Source: an uncultured virus (IMG/VR IMGVR_UViG_3300044701_003393) (Duplodnaviria; Heunggongvirae; Uroviricota; Caudoviricetes). From it: 64,000 nucleotides of DNA. The stretch lies in the IMG/VR virus record IMGVR_UViG_3300044701_003393; one strand, 5' to 3'. Made by a program: the position numbers and the translations under genes. Of the stretch, positions 9,356 through 51,448 are shown in pieces; position 1 is the first letter of the stretch; every line of letters begins with the position of its first letter. The notes beneath the pieces are model-generated. The model did no database searches. It worked only from the letters and a program-made list of their open reading frames with translations, and was not told the DNA's origin.

Positions 9356-9492
9356 AAGATGTCGTTTGGTCTGTTAATATTCTTCTTGGTATTTGTTTGG
9401 TTGGTGTTGCTTGGGCTATCTACAAAATCCTACTCATCGCAAATCAGGAAAATGTATCAGTACAAAATAAAGAAGATTCACAGGGTCATTGA
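9352..9492 (+). CDS. Small TM protein, 46 aa
   Basis: ATGA overlap with the previous ORF; MKDVVWSVNILLGICLVGVAWAIYKILL... Confidence 0.5.
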   Translation: MKDVVWSVNILLGICLVGVAWAIYKILLIANQENVSVQNKEDSQGH

Positions 9493-9793
9493 TGGAGACA
9501 CTGTTGACGTTGATATTGATTTAGGATTTAGCATTACACTCAGACAAAGAGTTCGTCTCAAAGATATTGATGCAGCAGAGACAAGAACTAAAGACTTAGA
9601 AGAAAAGAAAAAAGGTATTGATGCAAGACTTTGGTTAGAAAAAGAACTTGCAAGAGAAGGTGACTGGATTATCGAAACACATAAAGAAGACAAGTACGGA
9701 AGAATACTTGGAGTTCTTTATTGTGTTGGAGATCCAGTCACTGTAAATGAAAGAATGTTAAATGAAGGTATTGCGTATCCTTACATACTATGA
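9452..9793 (+). CDS. Thermonuclease (SNase)-like nuclease
   Basis: RVIDGDTV, RVRLKDIDAAE, DKYGRILG; likely start ATG 9452. Confidence 0.85.
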   Translation: MYQYKIKKIHRVIDGDTVDVDIDLGFSITLRQRVRLKDIDAAETRTKDLEEKKKGIDARLWLEKELAREGDWIIETHKEDKYGRILGVLYCVGDPVTVNERMLNEGIAYPYIL

Positions 9794-11025
9794 GGTCCGT
9801 GATCGAAATGATCTGTAGGAAGATCAAAGTGATCGAAGTGAACCTCTGGGAGATTATCTAATACAACATCAGGAATATGAGTATCAAAATTATCAAGAGG
9901 ATGCTCGTTAGGAATTTCGTGAGTATTAATAACATTTAGATCTACTGGATTTTCTTCTAAGAATCTTCCAACAAAATCATCATAATGTTCACTTGGAGAC
10001 TGATCATTTTCAGCGTTATTGTGATTGAGGGAATTACCTGGAGCATCATCATCTCCGTTCCCCCATCCATTATTTTGCTGTTCATCAGGTTTTCCTCCAC
10101 CATTTCCAGCATTTCCTCCATTACCAGGAGGATCTTTTGGATCATTATTTTGTCCTCCATCATTCTTTGAATCGCCTGGAGGTTGGTTTGGTTCGGGATC
10201 TTGTCCATCTTGGTGATTACCTTTGCCTGGATTGTCTGATGCTCCTGTCTCACCATCCCAAGGGGAATTGCCTACATCTTTATCATTACCAGGATTACCC
10301 CCACCAGGTTCCTCTGGATCTTCAGGTTCTTCAGGTTCCTCTGGATCTTCAGGTTCTTCAGGTTCCTCTGGATCTTCAGGTTCCTCTGGATCTTCAGGTT
10401 CTTCAGGTTCCTCTGGATCTTCAGGATCTTCAGGATCTTCTGGTTCCTCTGGTTCCTCTGGATCTTCAGGTTCTTCAGGTTCTTCAGGTTCCTCTGGATC
10501 TTCAGGTTCTTCAGGTTCTTCAGGTTCCTCTGGATCTTCAGGTTCTTCAGGTGGTGGAGGTGGTGGTGGATCTTCAGGATCAACTGGGGGGTCTACAGGA
10601 GGCTCTGGATCAACTGGAGGATCTACCACATCTTCTTCGATAGGTGGTCCATCACTATTGCTAGAACTATCAGGAACAATATTATTCCCAGGTAAACTGC
10701 TAATAACGACATTTGCGTTTCTTATAGGAGTTGTTGAATCTATTCTTGTATTTTCAATCTCTGGAATATTTCTATTCGCAAAGGAAATATTGTCCCCAGA
10801 AGACCCATAAACGTCCTGAGGAATAATGTCGTTTAATATTGGAGATGTTACTTCTACTTCAGGAACGTTTACAGGATCAACCTGTTCGACTGGAGTATTA
10901 TCTTCACCAATTCCTACAGGTGTATATCCATTAGGATACCTAGATGCAGCATTAGGATCATAAGGGATAGTATCCTGTATTTGCTGATTTGACTTTTGCA
11001 GTTCTTCAAGTTGAAATTCATCCAT
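9781..11025 (-). CDS. Acidic low-complexity protein with Glu/Asp-Pro repeats
   Basis: (EEP/EDP)n tract; GNPGNDKDVG and NNGWGNGDDDAPG motifs; His/Asp-rich tail. Confidence 0.8.
   Translation of the reverse strand: MDEFQLEELQKSNQQIQDTIPYDPNAASRYPNGYTPVGIGEDNTPVEQVDPVNVPEVEVTSPILNDIIPQDVYGSSGDNISFANRNIPEIENTRIDSTTPIRNANVVISSLPGNNIVPDSSSNSDGPPIEEDVVDPPVDPEPPVDPPVDPEDPPPPPPPEEPEDPEEPEEPEEPEDPEEPEEPEEPEDPEEPEEPEDPEDPEDPEEPEEPEDPEEPEDPEEPEEPEDPEEPEEPEDPEEPGGGNPGNDKDVGNSPWDGETGASDNPGKGNHQDGQDPEPNQPPGDSKNDGGQNNDPKDPPGNGGNAGNGGGKPDEQQNNGWGNGDDDAPGNSLNHNNAENDQSPSEHYDDFVGRFLEENPVDLNVINTHEIPNEHPLDNFDTHIPDVVLDNLPEVHFDHFDLPTDHFDHGPHSM
10304..10551. repeat. Tandem 9-bp repeat tract (TCAGGTTCT/TCTGGATCT variants) coding EEP/EDP
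   Basis: Visible tandem repeats. Confidence 0.9.
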
Positions 11026-11062
11026 AATAATAACACCTCAATAAAGTCTATTGTTATTTATT

Positions 11063-11536
11063 TTAAGTTCTTTTCCAAAGATCACCCTCTGCTTTTCTTC
11101 TTCTTGCTAATCCTGCCTCTACATTACTTCCAGGATTTCGGTAAAGATATAAAGCATCAGGAACTTTATCCCATTCCTTATTCTTTAATACTCTAGTTAT
11201 GGTATTAAAATTGGGACCCCCGTAGAAATTAGCACCAAGATTATAAGCAAAAGAAAGAAGTGCTCCTTGTTGATTTTCATTCATCTCATTCCAATAAGGG
11301 ATTTTTTGTAGTGCAGGAATAAATTTTGTTTCAATATCAAACATTAACAGATCATCTGCTTCCTGTTGTGTAATGGTATTACCCATTATAAATCCAGTTC
11401 CATCTTTTCTGCTAGTAGAACCCCAACCTATTGTGATTGGAGCACCTCCAGTCAAAGGATCTGGATATGCTCTTAATTTACAACCTTCAAATACTTTTAT
11501 CAGTTCTACCCCTTTAACTGGAATAGAACTAATTAC
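11063..11536 (-). CDS. GH24 phage lysozyme domain with no canonical start; likely reached by -1 frameshift
   Basis: Frame reads ..GVELIKVFEGCKLRAYPDP..TIGWG..ALLSFAYNLG..GLARRRKAE; the first ATG/GTG/TTG is TTG 11455, after the catalytic Glu. Confidence 0.85.
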   Translation of the reverse strand, partial: VISSIPVKGVELIKVFEGCKLRAYPDPLTGGAPITIGWGSTSRKDGTGFIMGNTITQQEADDLLMFDIETKFIPALQKIPYWNEMNENQQGALLSFAYNLGANFYGGPNFNTITRVLKNKEWDKVPDALYLYRNPGSNVEAGLARRRKAEGDLWKRT

Positions 11537-12234
11537 TTTTTTGCATCAAAAATACGACCCCATCCAGTTCTATCTTTTCCTTTATCCAACCATCGTTGCA
11601 TTAGATCTGATCTCTTATATACAGCACCTTTACCATTTGTAACTGGTCCCGTATATCCATCGTTGAGAGAACCATAAGGATCATTTACAACATAATCATC
11701 ACCTTTCTTACCGATCACTACAAGTAAGTGCCCGCCAGTAGGTGCAGATAAAGAACCGCGATGAAGAATCCCGATAACGACAGGTCTCCCAGCGGCAAGC
11801 TCACGATCAAGATCAGCAAAAGAAAGATTGTAAACAAATCGTGACTTAATACCATAACCTTCCAAAACTTTTGTTTGGACGGTGTGATCAGTCGTATCAC
11901 CAATTGCGAATACCTTTTGAATATAGGCATCATCGCCTGTTGCTCCTTGAAGTGTGCCTGGTTTGAAATACTCTAGACACATCGCACAAGAAGATGAATT
12001 ACAGGTTCTTTGTGCATCTCTGTAATTATCTGTTTGTGGGAACCAAGGAACATTAAGAACTCCTGGAACTACTGGTTCTACTTTTGATCTATAAATTTTT
12101 ATCCAACTCGTTTCATCATCAAGCAAGTCTGGATTTTTAGATTCCAAATCCTTTTCAAACTGCTCTACTGCTGCAACGTGCTTTGGATTTTTAGGATCGT
12201 AGTGTAAAAAGAAATTATGGAGATCTATTTTCAT
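11533..12234 (-). CDS. C39-like peptidase (cell-wall hydrolase)
   Basis: VPWFPQ..CNSSSCAM, GGHLLVVIG, VNDPYG. Confidence 0.85.
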   Translation of the reverse strand: MKIDLHNFFLHYDPKNPKHVAAVEQFEKDLESKNPDLLDDETSWIKIYRSKVEPVVPGVLNVPWFPQTDNYRDAQRTCNSSSCAMCLEYFKPGTLQGATGDDAYIQKVFAIGDTTDHTVQTKVLEGYGIKSRFVYNLSFADLDRELAAGRPVVIGILHRGSLSAPTGGHLLVVIGKKGDDYVVNDPYGSLNDGYTGPVTNGKGAVYKRSDLMQRWLDKGKDRTGWGRIFDAKK

Positions 12235-12264
12235 ATCTTTACCTATTCAGTAAATTTATTTATT

Positions 12265-12289
12265 AAAAAAGGAGGGTTTTAACCCTCCT
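12265..12289 (-). terminator. Rho-independent terminator
   Basis: AGGAGGG-TTAAAA-CCCTCCT followed by a T run. Confidence 0.75.
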
Positions 12290-12295
12290 TCTAAA

Positions 12296-12823
12296 TCACA
12301 CAAGTTCTTTTTCTAGAATTGTAGATTTCACATAATCCAGAACTGCTGTTGGAGTTGTTTCCTCATAAGGATCAGTATCAGCATTATCACGCTGACCTGC
12401 TTCAACAAATAGTTTCTCAATCACACCATTATCTACCACAGCAGCGTAACGCCAACTGCGCTCACCGAAGCCAAGATTTGACTTACGGACGAGCATACCC
12501 ATCGAACGGGTGAAGTATGCATTTCCATCGGGAATCAGTTTTACGTTTTGAATATTTTGGTCTTGAGCCCAAGCGTTCATCACGAAACCATCATTCACAG
12601 AGATACAATAGATTTCATCAATACCAAGTGCTTTGAATTCCTCAAACTTCTCTTCAAAACCAGGGAGTTGGTATGCAGAGCAAGTAGGAGTGAATGCACC
12701 AGGAAGTGAGAAAATCACAACACGCTTTCCGTTGAAGAGTTCGGAAGAAGTGCGAGTTACAAACTCACCTGCCTCACGGAACACAAATTCTACTTGAGGA
12801 ATTTGATAACCTTCGCTACGCAT
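12296..12823 (-). CDS. Peroxiredoxin (Prx5/type II)
   Basis: LPGAFTPTCS, SVNDGFVMNAW, RSWRYA; GGAGG RBS before ATG 12823. Confidence 0.92.
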   Translation of the reverse strand: MRSEGYQIPQVEFVFREAGEFVTRTSSELFNGKRVVIFSLPGAFTPTCSAYQLPGFEEKFEEFKALGIDEIYCISVNDGFVMNAWAQDQNIQNVKLIPDGNAYFTRSMGMLVRKSNLGFGERSWRYAAVVDNGVIEKLFVEAGQRDNADTDPYEETTPTAVLDYVKSTILEKELV

Positions 12824-13688: not shown

Positions 13689-15161
13689 TCAGAACGTGAA
13701 CTTGGTCTGGATTACACCACCCCACTTAGCAGAGTCCTGATAACGCTGATTGTTATCAACGTAGAACAGAGCAGGAGTGATGCTGATGTTATCAGACACT
13801 TGGAACTTGTAGAAGATTTCAACAAGAGTGGCGTCATCTACACCTTTGGTATCAGCAGTAGGTGCTTGACCCACAGCAACTCCAGCAGAGTTACCCTTGA
13901 GGAAGACATCGCTCCACTGAAGACCAGCCATCCAGGACTGACTATCAGTAGCATCAGTAACACCAGTAGTACCATTAACCCAGTTGTAACCGTAACCAGC
14001 ACTGATTGAAGGAATCCAACCAGACTGTTCGGGTTGCCAGTAAGCGTTAACTGCAAGACCATTAGAAGTCTGACCGTCTACAAGAGTACCAGTAGCACCC
14101 AGGAGACCGTTGTAGGAGCGAGGACGGGTGCCTTCAGTACCATAGCGGTATCCAACACCAACACCCCAGTTCTTACCACGATAACCGACTTGACCCAGCA
14201 GGTTCAGAGCACCATCTTCATTGAAGACGCCAGTAGAAGAGTTATCACCGTCCTGAGCGACATAGTTCAGACCAGCAACAAATCCACCATTACCAGCATA
14301 CTGAATACCGAAACCAGCACCGAGTGCCTTATTATATACACCAGGAGTACCAGCAGTAGCAAAGAAGTCAAGGATTTCCGACTTATATGCGGAAGGAACC
14401 CAAGCAATCTCAGTGTTACGGACTTTAGCACCAGCAGTGATGGTGGTAGTGTCGTTAAACACAGGGAACTGATAATACAGACGATCAATAACTACGTTAT
14501 CGCCAACTTCGCTAGAAGTGTTATCTGCTTTATCCAGTTTGAAAAGGGAACCCGAAGAAGCAAAAGGATCCGTGCTGAAGTTAGAAGAACGCAGACGAGT
14601 ACGGAGCAGGTCCTTACCAGTGAAGCTGGTATCGAAGTTCAGACGGACATCATAATTAAATGCGGTGTCGCCAACGTTTCCACCGTCATTAGTTTCAAGT
14701 CCAGGAACTCCACCCAGAACAAAGGTAGCCTCACCACGAAGTTTCGTAGTGGTAGAGAACTGAGTTGCTTCCAGTTGACCGACTTGTGCTTCCAGTTTAT
14801 CTACACGACCACGGATAACGGCAAGTTCTTGAGCGAACTCTGCCTGAAGACGCTTCAGTTCATCGGTAACTTCAGTCACACGATCCAGGCAAGCATTCAG
14901 AAGAGCAGCTGCCTCATAACGGGTCATTGACTGACCACCACCATAAGTGCCGTTAGGATAACCAGCAACACAACCATAACGCTCTACAAGGTTGTTGAGT
15001 GCTTGATATGCCCAATCGGTAGGACGAACATCAGAGAACTGTGAGATGCTCGTAACTTGAGATTCTACATAAGGTCCATAAGTGCCATAGGGTTCTGCGA
15101 ACGCAGCACCAGCGACCAGTGGAGTTGCAGCAAGGGTTGCTGCGAAAGCGGATTTAAACAT
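13689..15161 (-). CDS. Cyanobacterial outer-membrane porin (SLH plus OprB-like, Som type)
   Basis: Signal peptide; FSDVRPTDWAYQAL...GCVAGYP SLH motif; QFSTTTKLRGE; C-terminal Phe; GAGG RBS before ATG 15161. Confidence 0.92.
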   Translation of the reverse strand: MFKSAFAATLAATPLVAGAAFAEPYGTYGPYVESQVTSISQFSDVRPTDWAYQALNNLVERYGCVAGYPNGTYGGGQSMTRYEAAALLNACLDRVTEVTDELKRLQAEFAQELAVIRGRVDKLEAQVGQLEATQFSTTTKLRGEATFVLGGVPGLETNDGGNVGDTAFNYDVRLNFDTSFTGKDLLRTRLRSSNFSTDPFASSGSLFKLDKADNTSSEVGDNVVIDRLYYQFPVFNDTTTITAGAKVRNTEIAWVPSAYKSEILDFFATAGTPGVYNKALGAGFGIQYAGNGGFVAGLNYVAQDGDNSSTGVFNEDGALNLLGQVGYRGKNWGVGVGYRYGTEGTRPRSYNGLLGATGTLVDGQTSNGLAVNAYWQPEQSGWIPSISAGYGYNWVNGTTGVTDATDSQSWMAGLQWSDVFLKGNSAGVAVGQAPTADTKGVDDATLVEIFYKFQVSDNISITPALFYVDNNQRYQDSAKWGGVIQTKFTF

Positions 15162-15270
15162 AAGTACCTCTATATTTTCTCGCAGAGTTTTCCTGCGGAT
15201 GTAAGGAGTTTCGACATAACTCCGTTTATTCAGTGAGTCAACAAGTATTTGAGGTATCGTCACCAGAACG

Positions 15271-33494: not shown

Positions 33495-33567
33495 TGCTGG
33501 TTGTCGGGATCGAACCGACCTATCTTGCCTTATGAGGGCAGTGCTTTCGCCAGAGAGCTAAACCAGC
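33495..33567 (-). tRNA. tRNA with CAT anticodon (Met or Ile2)
   Basis: GCTGGTT...AACCAGC-A cloverleaf; loop CT-CAT-AA; GGTTCGATCC T arm. Confidence 0.88.
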
Positions 33568-33977
33568 GTTTGTAAAAACTCTCCCCAACTATCACCATAA
33601 TGTAATATATGATGGCAGTTATGACAAAGAAGATCACATTTATCTACTTCTTCTTTGATAGTGTCCCATTTCCTATTAGCAAAAGATCTTCCATCAAGTT
33701 TTAATTCTTTTTGAGAAGGATCTCTATGATGAAAGCATAGAGTTGCTGGCCTATCTTCACCACAAGTTTGACACTTAGCACCTTTATATTGAAGTGCTTT
33801 CCATTTATTGGAATATGCACGTTCTTTTTGTTCAGTATAAGTGTTTCTGTTCATAACACAAGGATCATTTCTATATCTCCATTTCATTCGGCAAGTTTCA
33901 TTACAATAGAGTTTTGCTCTTCCACCTTTTCGTGGATGTTGTTCAACTTCTTTACCGCAGGATTTACAGATAATCAT
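33558..33977 (-). mobile_element. HNH-type homing endonuclease in the tRNA region
   Basis: CQTCG...CFHHRDP...CDLLCHNCH; TATAAATA late promoter at 34004-34011. Confidence 0.75.
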
Positions 33978-34176
33978 TTTGGTTATGAACGTATACATAC
34001 ACCTATTTATAATAAATGTATGTTGGAGGAGAGATCCATACAGTGAAACAGAAGCGCAATACAAGTCATAGGTCTGTTTCGCACCGACTTGCAGCTGGGG
34101 TTTTTCACTCTCCTTTTTTCAAGTAGGTTTTCTGTTGCTTATCCTAAAAAACCCACTACAAAATGGATAAGCAAAG

Positions 34177-34248
34177 TAGGACTGCTGAGACTTGAACTCA
34201 GTTCACACCGTTATAAGCAGTGGGCCTTAACCCATAGGCGACAGTCCC
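34177..34248 (-). tRNA. tRNA-Ile (TAT)
   Basis: CACTG-CT-TAT-AA-CGGTG anticodon arm; full cloverleaf. Confidence 0.9.
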
Positions 34249-34287
34249 TTAAGACCAGATCTATAGTAGCGGACCTGGAACGCTCTG

Positions 34288-34521
34288 TCAAGACCCTTCT
34301 TCGTGGTCTGTGTGAATCTTGACTATCTCTTCAAGATCCACATTTGCTTCGTTACATATACTAACCACTTCTTTGTAAGGAACCATTACTGCATTTCCGT
34401 GTTGACTTTTGATGAGTAGTGTCTCACCGCTTTCTACTCTATTCATAAGGTTATCAAAATCTGCTTGAAACTCTTCAATTGTAAAGGATGGAAGTTTTTC
34501 GATTTCTGGATTCATTTTCAT
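34288..34521 (-). CDS. Hypothetical protein (Phd-like N-terminus)
   Basis: FTIEEFQADFDNLMNRVESGE...IK. Confidence 0.6.
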   Translation of the reverse strand: MKMNPEIEKLPSFTIEEFQADFDNLMNRVESGETLLIKSQHGNAVMVPYKEVVSICNEANVDLEEIVKIHTDHEEGS

Positions 34522-34537
34522 AAAGTGATTTTATGAG

Positions 34538-34611
34538 TCCGAGTTGCAGGATTCGAACCTGCGACCCTCTGCTCCCAAAGCAGATGCGCTACCAAACTGC
34601 GCTAAACCCGG
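34538..34611 (-). tRNA. tRNA-Pro (TGG)
   Basis: TCTGC-TT-TGG-GA-GCAGA anticodon arm. Confidence 0.92.
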
Positions 34612-34728
34612 TTACTTGTCTCTATGTATAAACATAATACCAGCAAATGGTACGATTGTCAACCCGCACCCGCAGAGAAAAAGAAAAAATGGATTTGCTG
34701 CGAGTGCTTCTACGATATGGAAAATCAT
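34612..34728 (-). CDS. Small TM protein, 38 aa; one of several tiny ORFs at 34612-35260
   Basis: MIFHIVEALAANPFFLFLCGCGLTIVPFAGIMFIHRDK. Confidence 0.5.
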   Translation of the reverse strand: MIFHIVEALAANPFFLFLCGCGLTIVPFAGIMFIHRDK

Positions 34729-34910
34729 TTTATATATGCGTGATCTAGGGACCAAATGATTAACAATCCTATTATACCAAAGATTGTGAGTGCTGTATAG
34801 ATGCGGTCATTCATCGTCTTCGTCCTCGTATGTAGAAGGTTCTTCAAAAAGTTCATTCATCTTTTGTTGTAAAACTCTTTTTAGTAGTTCTTCTAAATCT
34901 TCTTCTGACA

Positions 34911-35114
34911 TTAGTTTAACGTGATCTTAAGCCAAGGTAAGAGTGGGGGAATAATACCAATCAGTCTCAGTAGTCCCTCAGCAAATAAAGCAAGAACCAC
35001 CCAACCGACGCACATACTAATGATAGAAGCATTACGGTTGTGTCGTCGTATTGCTGCATCAATCATCTCCTGAACTTCTGAACGAGTAATAAATTCGTCT
35101 TGAGGTTCCATCAC
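34911..35114 (-). CDS. Small membrane protein
   Basis: 67 aa with one TM helix. Confidence 0.7.
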   Translation of the reverse strand: MMEPQDEFITRSEVQEMIDAAIRRHNRNASIISMCVGWVVLALFAEGLLRLIGIIPPLLPWLKITLN

Positions 35115-35372
35115 TTCTCATCTCCAAGAAATTTTGCAAGAGGATCTCTACGGGTTTTAACTATCTCAACTGCTCTTTTATAGAACATATTATCAGTGTT
35201 ACCAGAAGCCTCAAAAGTTTCTTTGATCTTCACCCAATTATCATAGGTGCGTTGATCCATTTTTCTAGTTCGTATTACTACTATATACTAGTTCTGGACT
35301 TTTGAACGTCAACGATTTGTGTTCAAAGAGTAACACTGTTGAAGAGAATCTTAAATTTTTAATGCTTCTTAA

Positions 35373-35457
35373 CGGAAAGGGTGGGATTCGAACCCACGGA
35401 TGCTTTCACATCGCCAGTTTTCAAGACTGGAGCCTTCAACCACTCGACCACCTTTCC
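35373..35457 (-). tRNA. tRNA-Ser (TGA)
   Basis: CCAGT-CT-TGA-AA-ACTGG; long variable arm. Confidence 0.93.
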
Positions 35458-35469
35458 AATATTCAGTTC

Positions 35470-35721
35470 TTAACGAACTTCAAAATCAAGACGCCTAACT
35501 TTACGCTGGCGACGTGCTTCTTGCCAAGCAATATCTTGAGAAGTCAGCACACCTTTTTTTTGATTTTCTTTTAAAGAGTTTAGCATAACAATGCGAGATA
35601 AGTCAAGTGCCGAAATCTTATCTCCACGAATTGTTGCCATATTCGGACATCCACAAGTAACTGTTTTTGAGTGGTGTCCTGTTAGTTCTCTATTACAATC
35701 TTTGCATCTTATTGATAACAT
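35470..35721 (-). CDS. Hypothetical Zn-ribbon protein
   Basis: CKDC...CGCPN. Confidence 0.7.
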   Translation of the reverse strand: MLSIRCKDCNRELTGHHSKTVTCGCPNMATIRGDKISALDLSRIVMLNSLKENQKKGVLTSQDIAWQEARRQRKVRRLDFEVR

Positions 35722-35736
35722 TGTTCTTCATCCTCA

Positions 35737-36171
35737 TCACTGTAAATGTGATCTTAATTGCCATACAAACTTACCGTGAGATTCCATTAAATCTTGAACT
35801 AGATTAGCAGTTGCATAAGACTTTTGTTGCTCTGCTTCTTCCGAAATCTCTACCATCAACTCACAAAACTTAGTGTTATTATCCAGAAGTTCTTGAAGCA
35901 TATCTTTTGCTCCAGATGAACTTGCTGCCTCTTTAATTTGTGTAACCTCAAGCATTCTTGAAAGAGAACTTAATGGTTTTACATTTAAGTATCTCATATG
36001 TTCGGAGAGTCTGTCAATCTCTTCAAACATCGTTTCATACTGTCCGCCAAAGAGTTGATGTAGTTGAGTAAAATCTTCTCCAACTACATTCCAGTGAAAC
36101 GCCCAAGTTTTATGAAATAAAACAAAAAGTGATGACTGAGCATCACTTAAGAGTTTAAACAGTTTTTCCAT
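35737..36171 (-). CDS. dps: Dps / ferritin-like protein
   Basis: FHWNVVGEDFTQLHQLF, IDRLSEH, HGKFVWQL. Confidence 0.9.
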   Translation of the reverse strand: MEKLFKLLSDAQSSLFVLFHKTWAFHWNVVGEDFTQLHQLFGGQYETMFEEIDRLSEHMRYLNVKPLSSLSRMLEVTQIKEAASSSGAKDMLQELLDNNTKFCELMVEISEEAEQQKSYATANLVQDLMESHGKFVWQLRSHLQ

Positions 36172-36201
36172 TATACTCTTTTTGTATTTATTTATCAAGT
36201 A

Positions 36202-36274
36202 TGCCCGATATAGGTTCCGCCCCTACCGATGCCTGCTTGTAAGGCAGGTCCCTTCACTAGCTGGGTCATCGGGC
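36202..36274 (-). tRNA. tRNA-Val (TAC) with atypical T loop
   Basis: CCTGC-CT-TAC-AA-GCAGG; T loop GGCGGAA. Confidence 0.8.
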
Positions 36275-36280
36275 AAAAGG

Positions 36281-36353
36281 TCCTCTGTCTAGGAATCGAA
36301 CCTAGTTTCCAAGTGCATTGTCTGCCTGTCCTTACCAATAGACTACCAGAGGA
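36281..36353 (-). ncRNA. tRNA-like RNA with a non-canonical anticodon arm
   Basis: TCCTCTG/CAGAGGA acceptor, D loop TGGTAA, CTAGG-TTCGATT-CCTAG T arm; no 5-bp/7-nt anticodon arm. Confidence 0.65.
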
Positions 36354-36588
36354 TGTGGTAGGTGTTGGGGACTTTACCTATGTCCCCACTCTTTACATTC
36401 ACCCAAGCACCAGTTTAAACATCGACCTGGGGAGAGGTTTTGGCACCTACGAAGGTTTCCAATAGCCGTTCTTATCTCCCATAAGGAAGATGTAGGTATC
36501 GAACCTACAAAGGACAGTCCCTAACGGAACTGCTGGGAATTCCACCCAGAACCAATATGAAAGAATCGGACATTTCCAACCCTTTCAA

Positions 36589-36660
36589 CTCCACAACCTG
36601 GATTCGAACCAGGGACCAAAAGATTAACAGTCTTCTGCGCTACCGCTGCGCCATTGTGGA
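36589..36660 (-). tRNA. tRNA-Asn (GTT)
   Basis: GAAGA-CT-GTT-AA-TCTTT. Confidence 0.92.
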
Positions 36661-36680
36661 ATAAGAACCCGAAGGTTCAG

Positions 36681-36751
36681 AGCGGGTAACCGGAATCGAA
36701 CCGGTGACTCCAACTTGGAAGGATGGCATTTTACCCCTAAACTATACCCGC
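36681..36751 (-). tRNA. tRNA-Gly (TCC)
   Basis: GCGGGTA acceptor; CT-TCC-AA loop. Confidence 0.92.
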
Positions 36752-36791
36752 TTATGAGACAATCATAAACCTTTTGAGTTTGATTGTCAAG

Positions 36792-36876
36792 TGCCCGAAA
36801 CAGGATTTGAACCTGTAAGCCGTCGTAGGGCGATAGGACCTAAACCTATTGCGTTTGCCAATTCCGCCATTCGGGC
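36792..36876 (-). tRNA. tRNA-Leu (TAG)
   Basis: ATAGG-TT-TAG-GT-CCTAT; variable arm. Confidence 0.92.
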
Positions 36877-36960
36877 AAGATGGAGTAAGTGTGATATACC
36901 TCATAAGGATATAACAGAGACTTACTCTCTATTACTTTTATATATGGAGATAAACTCCAA

Positions 36961-37032
36961 CAGGCTCACCTGGAATCGAACCAGGGACATTCGCTTAGAA
37001 GGCGAAGGTTATATCCGCTTAACTATGAGCCC
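36961..37032 (-). tRNA. tRNA-Arg (TCT)
   Basis: TTCGC-CT-TCT-AA-GCGAA. Confidence 0.92.
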
Positions 37033-37228
37033 ATATAAGTTGGAAACGCATAAGACAGTGCCTTATGTATATTACCAGAAGTGTTAGAGGACTTCCGAAC
37101 CAACAAAACAATCATACCAGGTTAGGATTTGATCGTCAAGTGAGTGTCGCGTGGTTGTGAATCTAAATTAAACCTTTTTAATAAGTGCCCCACTGGATCT
37201 TATCTTAAGGTTTAAACCGCGACATATT

Positions 37229-51375: not shown

Positions 51376-51448
51376 TGGAGAATAGGGGACTCGAACCCCT
51401 CACCCCCGCCGTGCAAAGGCGGTGCTCTACCAAATGAGCTAATTCCCC
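51376..51448 (-). tRNA. tRNA-Ala (TGC)
   Basis: GGGGAAT acceptor with G3-U70; CCGCC-TT-TGC-AC-GGCGG. Confidence 0.93.

Follow-up and report, generated by a model that had tools for sequence, protein, structure and literature searches.

A peptidase-lysozyme gene of freshwater T4-like cyanophages is probably decoded by programmed -1 ribosomal frameshifting

We examined a stretch of 64,000 nucleotides from an uncultured virus (IMG/VR record IMGVR_UViG_3300044701_003393; hereafter the window), in which a lysin gene occupies positions 11063-12234 of the minus strand. The gene consists of a C39-like peptidase open reading frame (ORF) and a lysozyme ORF that overlap in different frames, and comparison with relatives indicates that it is very probably decoded by programmed -1 ribosomal frameshifting at a slippery heptamer, A_AAA_AAG, placed directly ahead of the peptidase stop codon. 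The anatomy of this junction is conserved among relatives, the hairpin behind the heptamer covaries, and the heptamer and a lysozyme start codon have complementary distributions. A_AAA_AAG followed by a hairpin is the textbook bacterial -1 signal, familiar from dnaX and the IS3 elements. By its sequence matches, the source appears to be a freshwater T4-like cyanophage (Kyanoviridae): only Kyanoviridae Synechococcus myoviruses matched in the phage collection (61 records, 60-80% nucleotide identity), and the public runs that hold the region are freshwater or lake metagenomes (at least half of the sampled words in 19 DNA runs; any part in 20 runs from 16 studies).

All elements of the locus lie on the minus strand. 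The peptidase ORF (233 amino acids; 11533..12234 including its stop, with the ATG at 12234) ends GAT GCA AAA AAG TAA, which places the heptamer, phased GCA AAA AAG, at 11536..11542 and the 0-frame TAA immediately behind it at 11533..11535. The -1 frame is closed by a TGA at 11546..11548, after which it reads CKKVISSIPVKGVELIKVFEGC... and stays open as far as the stop at 11065-11063. Because this TGA lies only 3 nt ahead of the heptamer, any productive shift would be limited to the heptamer itself. Translated from the heptamer region (CKKVISSIPVKGVELIKVFEGCKLRAYPDP...), the open -1 frame gives a 9-residue linker and then a full-length GH24 phage lysozyme (11063..11536, stop included). No ATG, GTG or TTG was found in the window's -1 frame between the TGA and the catalytic Glu of the FEG motif. 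The predicted shifted product has 233 + 157 = 390 amino acids and the junction ...FDAKK/VISSIPVK (...FDAKK-VISSIPVKGVELIK...), and the two frames overlap by 10 nt, as they do in 59 of the 82 heptamer-bearing -1 loci described below. In the minimum free energy (MFE) fold, a hairpin of 14 pairs with a 7-nt loop, the candidate stimulator, spans 11499..11533; its 3' arm supplies the codons for G-V-E-L, the start of the lysozyme domain. Much of this layout had been proposed in an initial annotation, made from the letters alone. Its positions for the peptidase end (GCA AAA AAG TAA) and for the heptamer (11542-11536) were reproduced here, as were the TGA followed by an open -1 frame with no ATG, GTG or TTG before the Glu, and the translated lengths agree with its 233-residue peptidase and ~390-residue peptidase-lysozyme. 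The hairpin, given there as 13 bp right after the stop (11532-11500), is extended by the MFE fold to 14 pairs (11533-11499).

Both products have recognizable domains. The peptidase matched Pfam PF13529 (Peptidase_C39_2) over residues 60-187 (E 4.4e-13; 50.5 bits against a cut-off of 24), covering the whole profile (1-143), and the lysozyme matched PF00959 over profile positions 2-125 of 125 (E 1.2e-22; 80.9 bits against a cut-off of 22.3). A single 405-position PHROG profile, phrog_3617, spans the two ORFs, with the peptidase at positions 1-235 (E 6.5e-91) and the lysozyme at 245-404 (E 9e-59); since one profile covers both, the two domains form a single protein in some phages. The lysozyme translation contains the FEG Glu, the AYPD Asp and the TIGWG Thr, which we take to be the catalytic motif by reference to T4 lysozyme, and the Glu is kept in every listed junction. 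A sequence search of the peptidase against the PDB returned nothing at E up to 1. Its AlphaFold2 (AF2) model has a mean predicted local distance difference test (pLDDT) score of 72 and is, as modelled, a papain-like cysteine peptidase fold: the top Foldseek match was 3erv, a C39-like peptidase (E 2.7e-5), and others were the PCAT1 and ComA peptidase domains, staphopain and the pseudomurein endoisopeptidase PeiR. Matches to 3erv, the PCAT1 peptidase domain and staphopain had E-values of 1e-5 to 1e-3 at modest template modelling (TM) scores of 0.35-0.5. Cys78, Cys83, His169 and Asp185 are invariant among 50 homologs; the region around residues 66-80, which surrounds the invariant Cys, is poorly modelled (pLDDT <50). 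The PHROG families matched carry the label endolysin. We regard the gene as a putative two-domain cell-wall lysin, which may also have a virion-associated role.

We then surveyed relatives of the locus. In total, 193 loci were collected (7 GenBank phages, 1 near-identical record, 80 of 375 IMG/VR relatives for the window peptidase, 80 of 357 for the ACG-2014f fusion and 25 for the S-CAM7 peptidase); some contigs were fetched twice. With the window this made 194 records, in which the domains were placed by tblastn and their frames compared. The lysozyme lay in the -1 frame in 142 records and in frame in 33, while 17 were incomplete; one record, DSL-LC02, had it in the +1 frame (separate genes with an ORF between), and one, S-CREM1, had the domains in reversed order. 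Collapsing identical peptidase-to-lysozyme DNA left 126 distinct sequences (100 in the -1 frame, 25 in frame, 1 in the +1 frame). Among the closest 80 IMG/VR loci, both domains were present in 78, and in every one of these the lysozyme was in the -1 frame (78/78). A phased slippery heptamer sits in the short overlap of 82 of the 100 distinct -1 loci, and 50 of these 82 have no ATG, GTG or TTG anywhere ahead of the lysozyme domain. The -1 loci that have no heptamer all have a start codon (18/18): in 17 it overlaps the peptidase stop as ATGA or GTGA, and in the remaining one, DSL-LC03, the lysozyme is a separate gene ~100 nt downstream. Not one of the 100 lacked both heptamer and start codon. 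In one locus with a GTG start (L146), the heptamer has decayed to GCA GCA AAG.

The heptamer is constrained at the level of nucleotides. Across the 82 distinct -1 loci it takes the form A_AAA_AAG in 78, A_AAA_AAA in 1 and U_UUU_UUU in 3. The codon preceding the Lys-Lys pair is GCA (40), GTA (34), ACA (4) or ATA (1), so that all 79 have A at the third position, compared with 35% A-ending codons for Ala, Val and Thr in the same ORFs. Lys-Lys is spelled AAA AAG in 78/79, the background of AAA elsewhere being 58%. The 0-frame stop follows the heptamer at a distance of 0 codons in 67 loci, 1 codon in 12 and 2 codons in 3, and the -1 frame opens 3 nt ahead of the heptamer in 74/82, so the productive window is essentially the heptamer. 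Counted from there, the lysozyme ORF is complete (150-179 amino acids) in 75 of 79, and the other 4 are cut by contig ends. An excerpt of a preprint gives 14-16% shifting for A_AAA_AAG by itself in cell-free E. coli assays (bioRxiv 10.1101/2025.10.02.679949). The frequency of the heptamer was rejected as evidence: the window contains 48 copies of AAAAAAG where 42.45 are expected, and 25 of 100 shuffles had as many as 48, which is chance level in AT-rich DNA.

A stable fold accompanies the heptamer. In the window the hairpin reaches -21 kcal/mol for an 81-nt stretch (z -4.63), and none of 200 shuffles was equally stable. At nearly all heptamer junctions a stem joins the beginning of the variable linker to the first codons of the lysozyme domain, and it does so with different sequences. 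One family, which includes the window and cyanophage S-PM2, pairs AGTTCTAYTCC with GGRGTAGAACT, another pairs TCAACAYCACA with TGTGGTGTTGA and a third pairs GCCAACYAAC with GTTRGTTGGC; one-off stems occur beyond these in L067 and S-CAM7, and the stems as a whole occupy two registers, one codon apart. RNAalifold identified compensatory double changes at 4 of 11 pairs in one family (the 11-pair consensus, counted among 24 relatives), 3 of 9 in another and 2 of 8 in the remaining one, with single positions divided, for example, between GC (16) and AU (6), UA (12) and CG (7), or AU (14) and GC (9). The conserved stem core, the 11-pair consensus, begins 5 nt after the heptamer; the largest stem starts 4-8 nt behind the heptamer in 49/82 loci and 0-3 nt behind it in 29/82. 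As a control, we folded the 55 nt that follow the heptamer or, in sequences without one, the corresponding position. Heptamer sequences had z < -2 in 68/82 (median z -3.5), start-codon relatives in 2/18 (median z -0.9) and plain in-frame fusions in 1/17 (median z -0.5). Because both control groups encode the same lysozyme N-terminus without the fold, coding constraint does not produce it. S-SRM01, which has both a heptamer and an ATG, has no hairpin (-2 kcal/mol). A search of 11350-11700 against known RNA families found nothing near the gathering score (best 22 bits, threshold 50). The conservation foreseen in the initial annotation is thus borne out in relatives: 82 of the 100 distinct -1 loci keep the heptamer, with the stop 0-2 codons behind it, and 68 of these 82 keep a fold of z < -2.

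Based on these features, we propose the following course of translation. The majority of ribosomes would remain in the 0 frame and halt at the TAA, giving the 233-residue protein that consists of an N-terminal module and the papain-like cysteine peptidase. A minority would pause with tRNA-Lys on the AAA and AAG of A_AAA_AAG, where the hairpin, with its conserved stem starting 5 nt downstream, holds them, then slip one base back, re-pair on AAA AAA and resume in the -1 frame at GTA. The outcome of the slip would be a 390-residue peptidase-linker-GH24 lysozyme. The adjacent stop perhaps also stimulates the shift. Judging from the reading frames, the lysozyme is almost certainly produced only as a C-terminal extension of the peptidase, and the two isoforms would act together in host lysis.

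Homopolymer runs are prone to sequencing errors and frameshift mutations, and the six A's of the window are well supported. Contigs from runs X1 and X2 are identical to the window throughout 11259-11563, and a contig of run X9, which represents another strain and differs by 11 substitutions, spans 11110-11812 without a gap; the three runs belong to three independent studies, and none of the contigs has an indel at the A6 run. A sequencing or assembly error was therefore rejected, and the homopolymer length, on which the initial annotation had advised a check, stands at six. That annotation had also named seven A's, in reads or relatives, as the mark of an in-frame fusion: the window's contigs carry no such run, and a few relatives do (A7 in L108-L112, described below). 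An IMG/VR record with 76% of the window's k-mers is identical over the 1172 bases; it possibly represents the same or a sister genome and was not counted as independent. The S-PM2 junction has the same layout in the original record and in a resequenced deletion-mutant record.

Several points weigh against programmed frameshifting. The actual shift of the ribosome we infer from sequence comparison, and the sole contig from an RNA library (run X20, 0.06 of words) spans 11301-11478, short of the junction. In -1 frameshift sites the stem usually lies 5-9 nt behind the heptamer, and the MFE stem of the window, lengthened by three extra weak pairs, begins at 2 nt. No clear Shine-Dalgarno-like stimulator was established upstream of the heptamer; by eye, a UGGGG ends 15 nt upstream, within Gly-Trp-Gly codons that are conserved for protein reasons. 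The host tRNA-Lys set bears on slippage at AAG, and there is no tRNA-Lys among the window's 10 phage tRNAs. In 32 of the 82 heptamer loci the -1 frame does contain some ATG, GTG or TTG ahead of the lysozyme domain (21 in the linker, mostly as Val or Leu codons within the 3' arm, and 11 near the stop), and independent initiation may occur there. Finally, the sequences are phylogenetically related, so that the locus counts overstate the number of independent observations.

A protein identical to the proposed fusion would result from transcriptional slippage, in which RNA polymerase adds an A in the A6 run (or a U in the U8 run of S-CAM7) and the mRNA is in frame without any shift of the ribosome. 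The shift site is indeed a homopolymer run, natural A7 variants in DNA show that the length of the run varies, and the S-CAM7 run comprises 8 T. Yet six A's are short for efficient polymerase slippage, known cases of which use runs of about 9, and the seventh base is G in 78/79 loci instead of prolonging the run. A covarying hairpin that begins 5 nt downstream and disappears precisely in the relatives with a start codon is a hallmark of a ribosomal stimulator, and we know of no role for such a hairpin in nucleotide insertion; we consider polymerase slippage improbable. Separate synthesis of the lysozyme, from a non-canonical start (ATT, CTG or ATA) or by reinitiation after the TAA with the hairpin serving translational coupling, appears quite improbable. 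Relatives with ATGA or GTGA do demonstrate that the two genes can be expressed separately through coupling, and a GTG, TTG or ATG lies near the stop in 11/82 heptamer loci; against this, 50/82 distinct loci have none of these codons, and initiation leaves the fixed synonymous sites of the heptamer unexplained. Nor is an ATT or CTG start, which the initial annotation had raised as an objection, conserved: where the window reads GTA ATT, most relatives read GTA GAA. The linker amino acids are moreover conserved with natural in-frame fusions (e.g. ..SKYD(I/V)P.KG), and the hairpin is weak or absent wherever a real start codon exists.

That the gene is a former fusion which has lost one A, in nature or in assembly, so that the lysozyme is unexpressed, we regard as very improbable, even though in-frame fused homologs exist (phrog_3617, ACG-2014f) and the A7 relatives are one base away from the window's layout. 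Contigs of three studies agree on A6, and the same arrangement occurs in 82 distinct sequences down to ~54% peptidase identity, with a lysozyme ORF of full length in 75/79 and the remainder cut by contig ends. The frameshift layout is also the prevailing, basal state of a 101-row clade in the tree described next.

To place the frameshift layout among its alternatives, we built a FastTree phylogeny of the peptidase domain (126 rows, junction columns excluded); it is a quick tree with midpoint rooting, and the directions of change read from it are provisional. In the 101-row clade A_AAA_AAG prevails, including in the earliest branches under midpoint rooting. A 25-row clade with a Shimodaira-Hasegawa-like support of 100 consists of the S-CAM7 lineage, nested within it, and otherwise of in-frame fusions only. 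The tree requires 5 frame changes and 13 changes of heptamer presence; supported branches force at least 7 switches to a coupled start, and there are 3 switches to the in-frame state (L107, L108, L112). In S-CAM7 and two IMG/VR relatives the peptidase ends ...GTT TTT TTT CCA CAG TAG, and the lysozyme follows in the -1 frame with no start codon. The heptamer here, U_UUU_UUU, lies two codons upstream of the position of the window's A_AAA_AAG and has a 5-nt spacer and a hairpin of its own, GTAGAACC with GGTTCTAC (in L170, GTAGAGCC). By these features, the U_UUU_UUU of the S-CAM7 lineage would be a second, independent frameshift site.

Among the 25 distinct in-frame forms, 17 have neither a heptamer nor a significant hairpin and are ordinary fusions. 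Five loci with two distinct junctions (L108-L112) carry seven A's, reading GTA AAA AAA GTA GAA with the hairpin intact; apart from the one added A they have the frameshift layout, and their junction, ...KKVE..., matches the shift's prediction exactly. Another in-frame variant, L107, also yields the shift-predicted junction. The A7 variants sit inside frameshift clades on the tree; they seem to be derived fusions that became fixed and not to represent the usual condition. L107 and the ACG-2014f group (L007, L089-L092, close relatives of each other) are in frame yet keep A_AAA_AAG with a hairpin 5-6 nt downstream, and their -1 frame meets a stop one codon after the site (AAA AAA GTC TGA). We note as a lead only that a shift in these genes would, from this layout, cut the protein back to the peptidase in the manner of dnaX.

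The distribution of the N-terminal module bears on what the fusion may provide. Residues 1-50 of the peptidase (12082..12234, minus strand) form a separate helical module in the AF2 model (pLDDT 81-94 over residues 1-40), outside the Pfam peptidase domain. In DSL-LC03 the separately encoded lysozyme is headed by a copy of this module (48% identity over 50 amino acids, E 7e-13), and because this phage puts a copy on its separate lysozyme, the sequences suggest that both catalytic domains depend on the module. In the window, as far as its reading frames indicate, fusion is the only way for the lysozyme to obtain it. Other separately started lysozymes (L055, L060, L065, L078, L083, L158 and similar loci) carry an N-terminal extension of ~55 amino acids (MTIKFIDAVKNHKDL...), in which BLASTP found no similarity to the peptidase's N-terminal module, DSL-LC03 alone being similar. 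A wider reading, that selection for two isoforms in a set ratio has acted on this gene, we offer only tentatively. That outcome would have been reached repeatedly with different encodings: through -1 frameshifting that arose at least twice (A_AAA_AAG in the large freshwater and estuarine clade, U_UUU_UUU in the S-CAM7 lineage nested among fusions), and through dnaX-like in-frame descendants, in which the shift would make the short form. The shared ~50-residue module may assemble the isoforms into a heteromeric lysin.

The proposed mechanism is a known one, and its occurrence in a cyanophage lysin is, as far as we have found, new. E. coli dnaX (tau/gamma) uses the same A_AAA_AAG heptamer (excerpted from bioRxiv 10.1101/2025.10.02.679949) and likewise makes two products with a common N-terminal part. 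The dnaX shift leads to a stop and a shorter protein, whereas the shift in the window would add a whole catalytic domain. In dnaX, a downstream stem-loop is combined with an upstream Shine-Dalgarno stimulator, which is not obligatory for -1 sites. The IS3 family (IS911/IS150 type) places A_AAA_AAG close to where the upstream ORF ends, with a 0-frame stop shortly after it and a downstream structure, and produces OrfA and an OrfAB fusion from a -1 ORF with no efficient start of its own; its product is a mobile-element transposase, whereas that of the window is a phage cell-wall hydrolase with no sequence relationship to it. A -1 frameshift in the tail assembly chaperone gene (G/GT) was reportedly described across tailed phages by Xu, Hendrix and Duda in 2004 (cited in PMC5506516). 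As in our case, the shift is conserved among phages, gives a short and a C-terminally extended protein (in a fixed ratio for G/GT) and keeps its position while sequences diverge; unlike our case, the gene serves tail assembly, not lysis, and the slippery sequences vary. Cyanophage in-frame fusions (phrog_3617; ACG-2014f gp209, 405 amino acids) have the same two catalytic domains and the module in an ordinary single ORF, and S-CREM1 has the same domains as a reversed lysozyme-peptidase fusion of 393 amino acids, also in one ORF. For the Alteromonas phage vB_AspP-H4/4, a passage of a genome announcement proposes that a slippery sequence directs a -1 shift out of an endolysin gene and into the ORF that follows (genes 39/40; PMC5658483). 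That phage is a podophage, and its downstream gene, according to the same passage, encodes an internal virion protein instead of a second wall hydrolase; the proposal takes up one sentence, and the passage holds no comparative or structural support for it (PMC5658483). Full-text searches of the literature, with the subscription-journal papers on the S-PM2 genome and virion proteome outside their reach, found no earlier description of frameshifting in a cyanophage lysin.

The surroundings of the gene are cyanophage-like, with a peroxiredoxin, a small protein of the high-light-inducible type, an OprB/SLH porin and a tRNA cluster, and the gene order matches phages DSL-LC02 and DSL-LC03. A 414-residue ORF (9781-11025, minus) starts 38 nt downstream of the lysozyme stop and contains central Pro/Glu/Asp repeats (PEEPEDPEEPEE...); neither Pfam nor PHROG gave a match for it. 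This ORF may be co-transcribed with the lysin, as no terminator turned up between the two; a promoter and terminator scan of 10900-12400 returned nothing. Between the peroxiredoxin gene and the peptidase (12250-12305, minus), an 11-pair hairpin followed by a U run (z -4.0) looks like a candidate intrinsic terminator, unflagged by the consensus scan. Just downstream of this hairpin, AATAAATA at 12264-12257, 23 nt before the peptidase ATG, resembles what we take to be the T4-type late promoter motif, TATAAATA. A phage-encoded outer-membrane porin of 524 amino acids (13689-15263, minus) combines an OprB-family barrel with an SLH domain, and its only relatives in the genome collection were from Gloeocapsopsis and a Nostocaceae metagenome-assembled genome (31-34% identity); in DSL-LC03, an 'autotransporter outer membrane beta-barrel' gene adjoins the lysin genes. 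Ten tRNA genes (Met, Ile(tat), Pro, Ser, His(atg), Asn, Gly, Leu, Arg and Ala) lie at 33495-37033 and 51376-51448 on the minus strand, nine of them in one cluster. On the strand opposite to the lysin cluster, a 144-residue ORF (9359-9793, plus) encodes a staphylococcal-nuclease (SNase) domain with a hydrophobic N-terminus.

Database records of these phages show the lysozyme as fragments or as two unrelated genes, so that the protein is missed or cut short in gene catalogues and metagenome annotations. In S-PM2 (L002, NC_006820) a 72-residue fragment is annotated at 2457-2675 and ~270 nt are left unannotated; in S-CAM7 (L006) a 90-residue fragment stands at 1742-2014, with ~240 nt unannotated. 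Both fragments, named 'putative lysin' or 'lysin', were called from internal Met codons, and S-SRM01 and the DSL phages are annotated as two genes. The S-PM2 and S-CAM7 records could be corrected by a ribosomal_slippage join. For the study of recoding, the family offers a natural series of 82 distinct sites with several stem solutions and a second, independent heptamer, useful for studying the origin, tuning and loss of frameshift signals. Little is known of the way in which T4-like cyanophages lyse their hosts. According to an excerpt from a review of T4-related phages, S-PM2, Syn9, P-SSM2 and P-SSM4 have no apparent gene e (PMC3014915). The peptidase-lysozyme is likely to be the main wall hydrolase of T4-like cyanophages, and recoding would be the only route to the lysozyme in many of these phages, the model phage S-PM2 among them.

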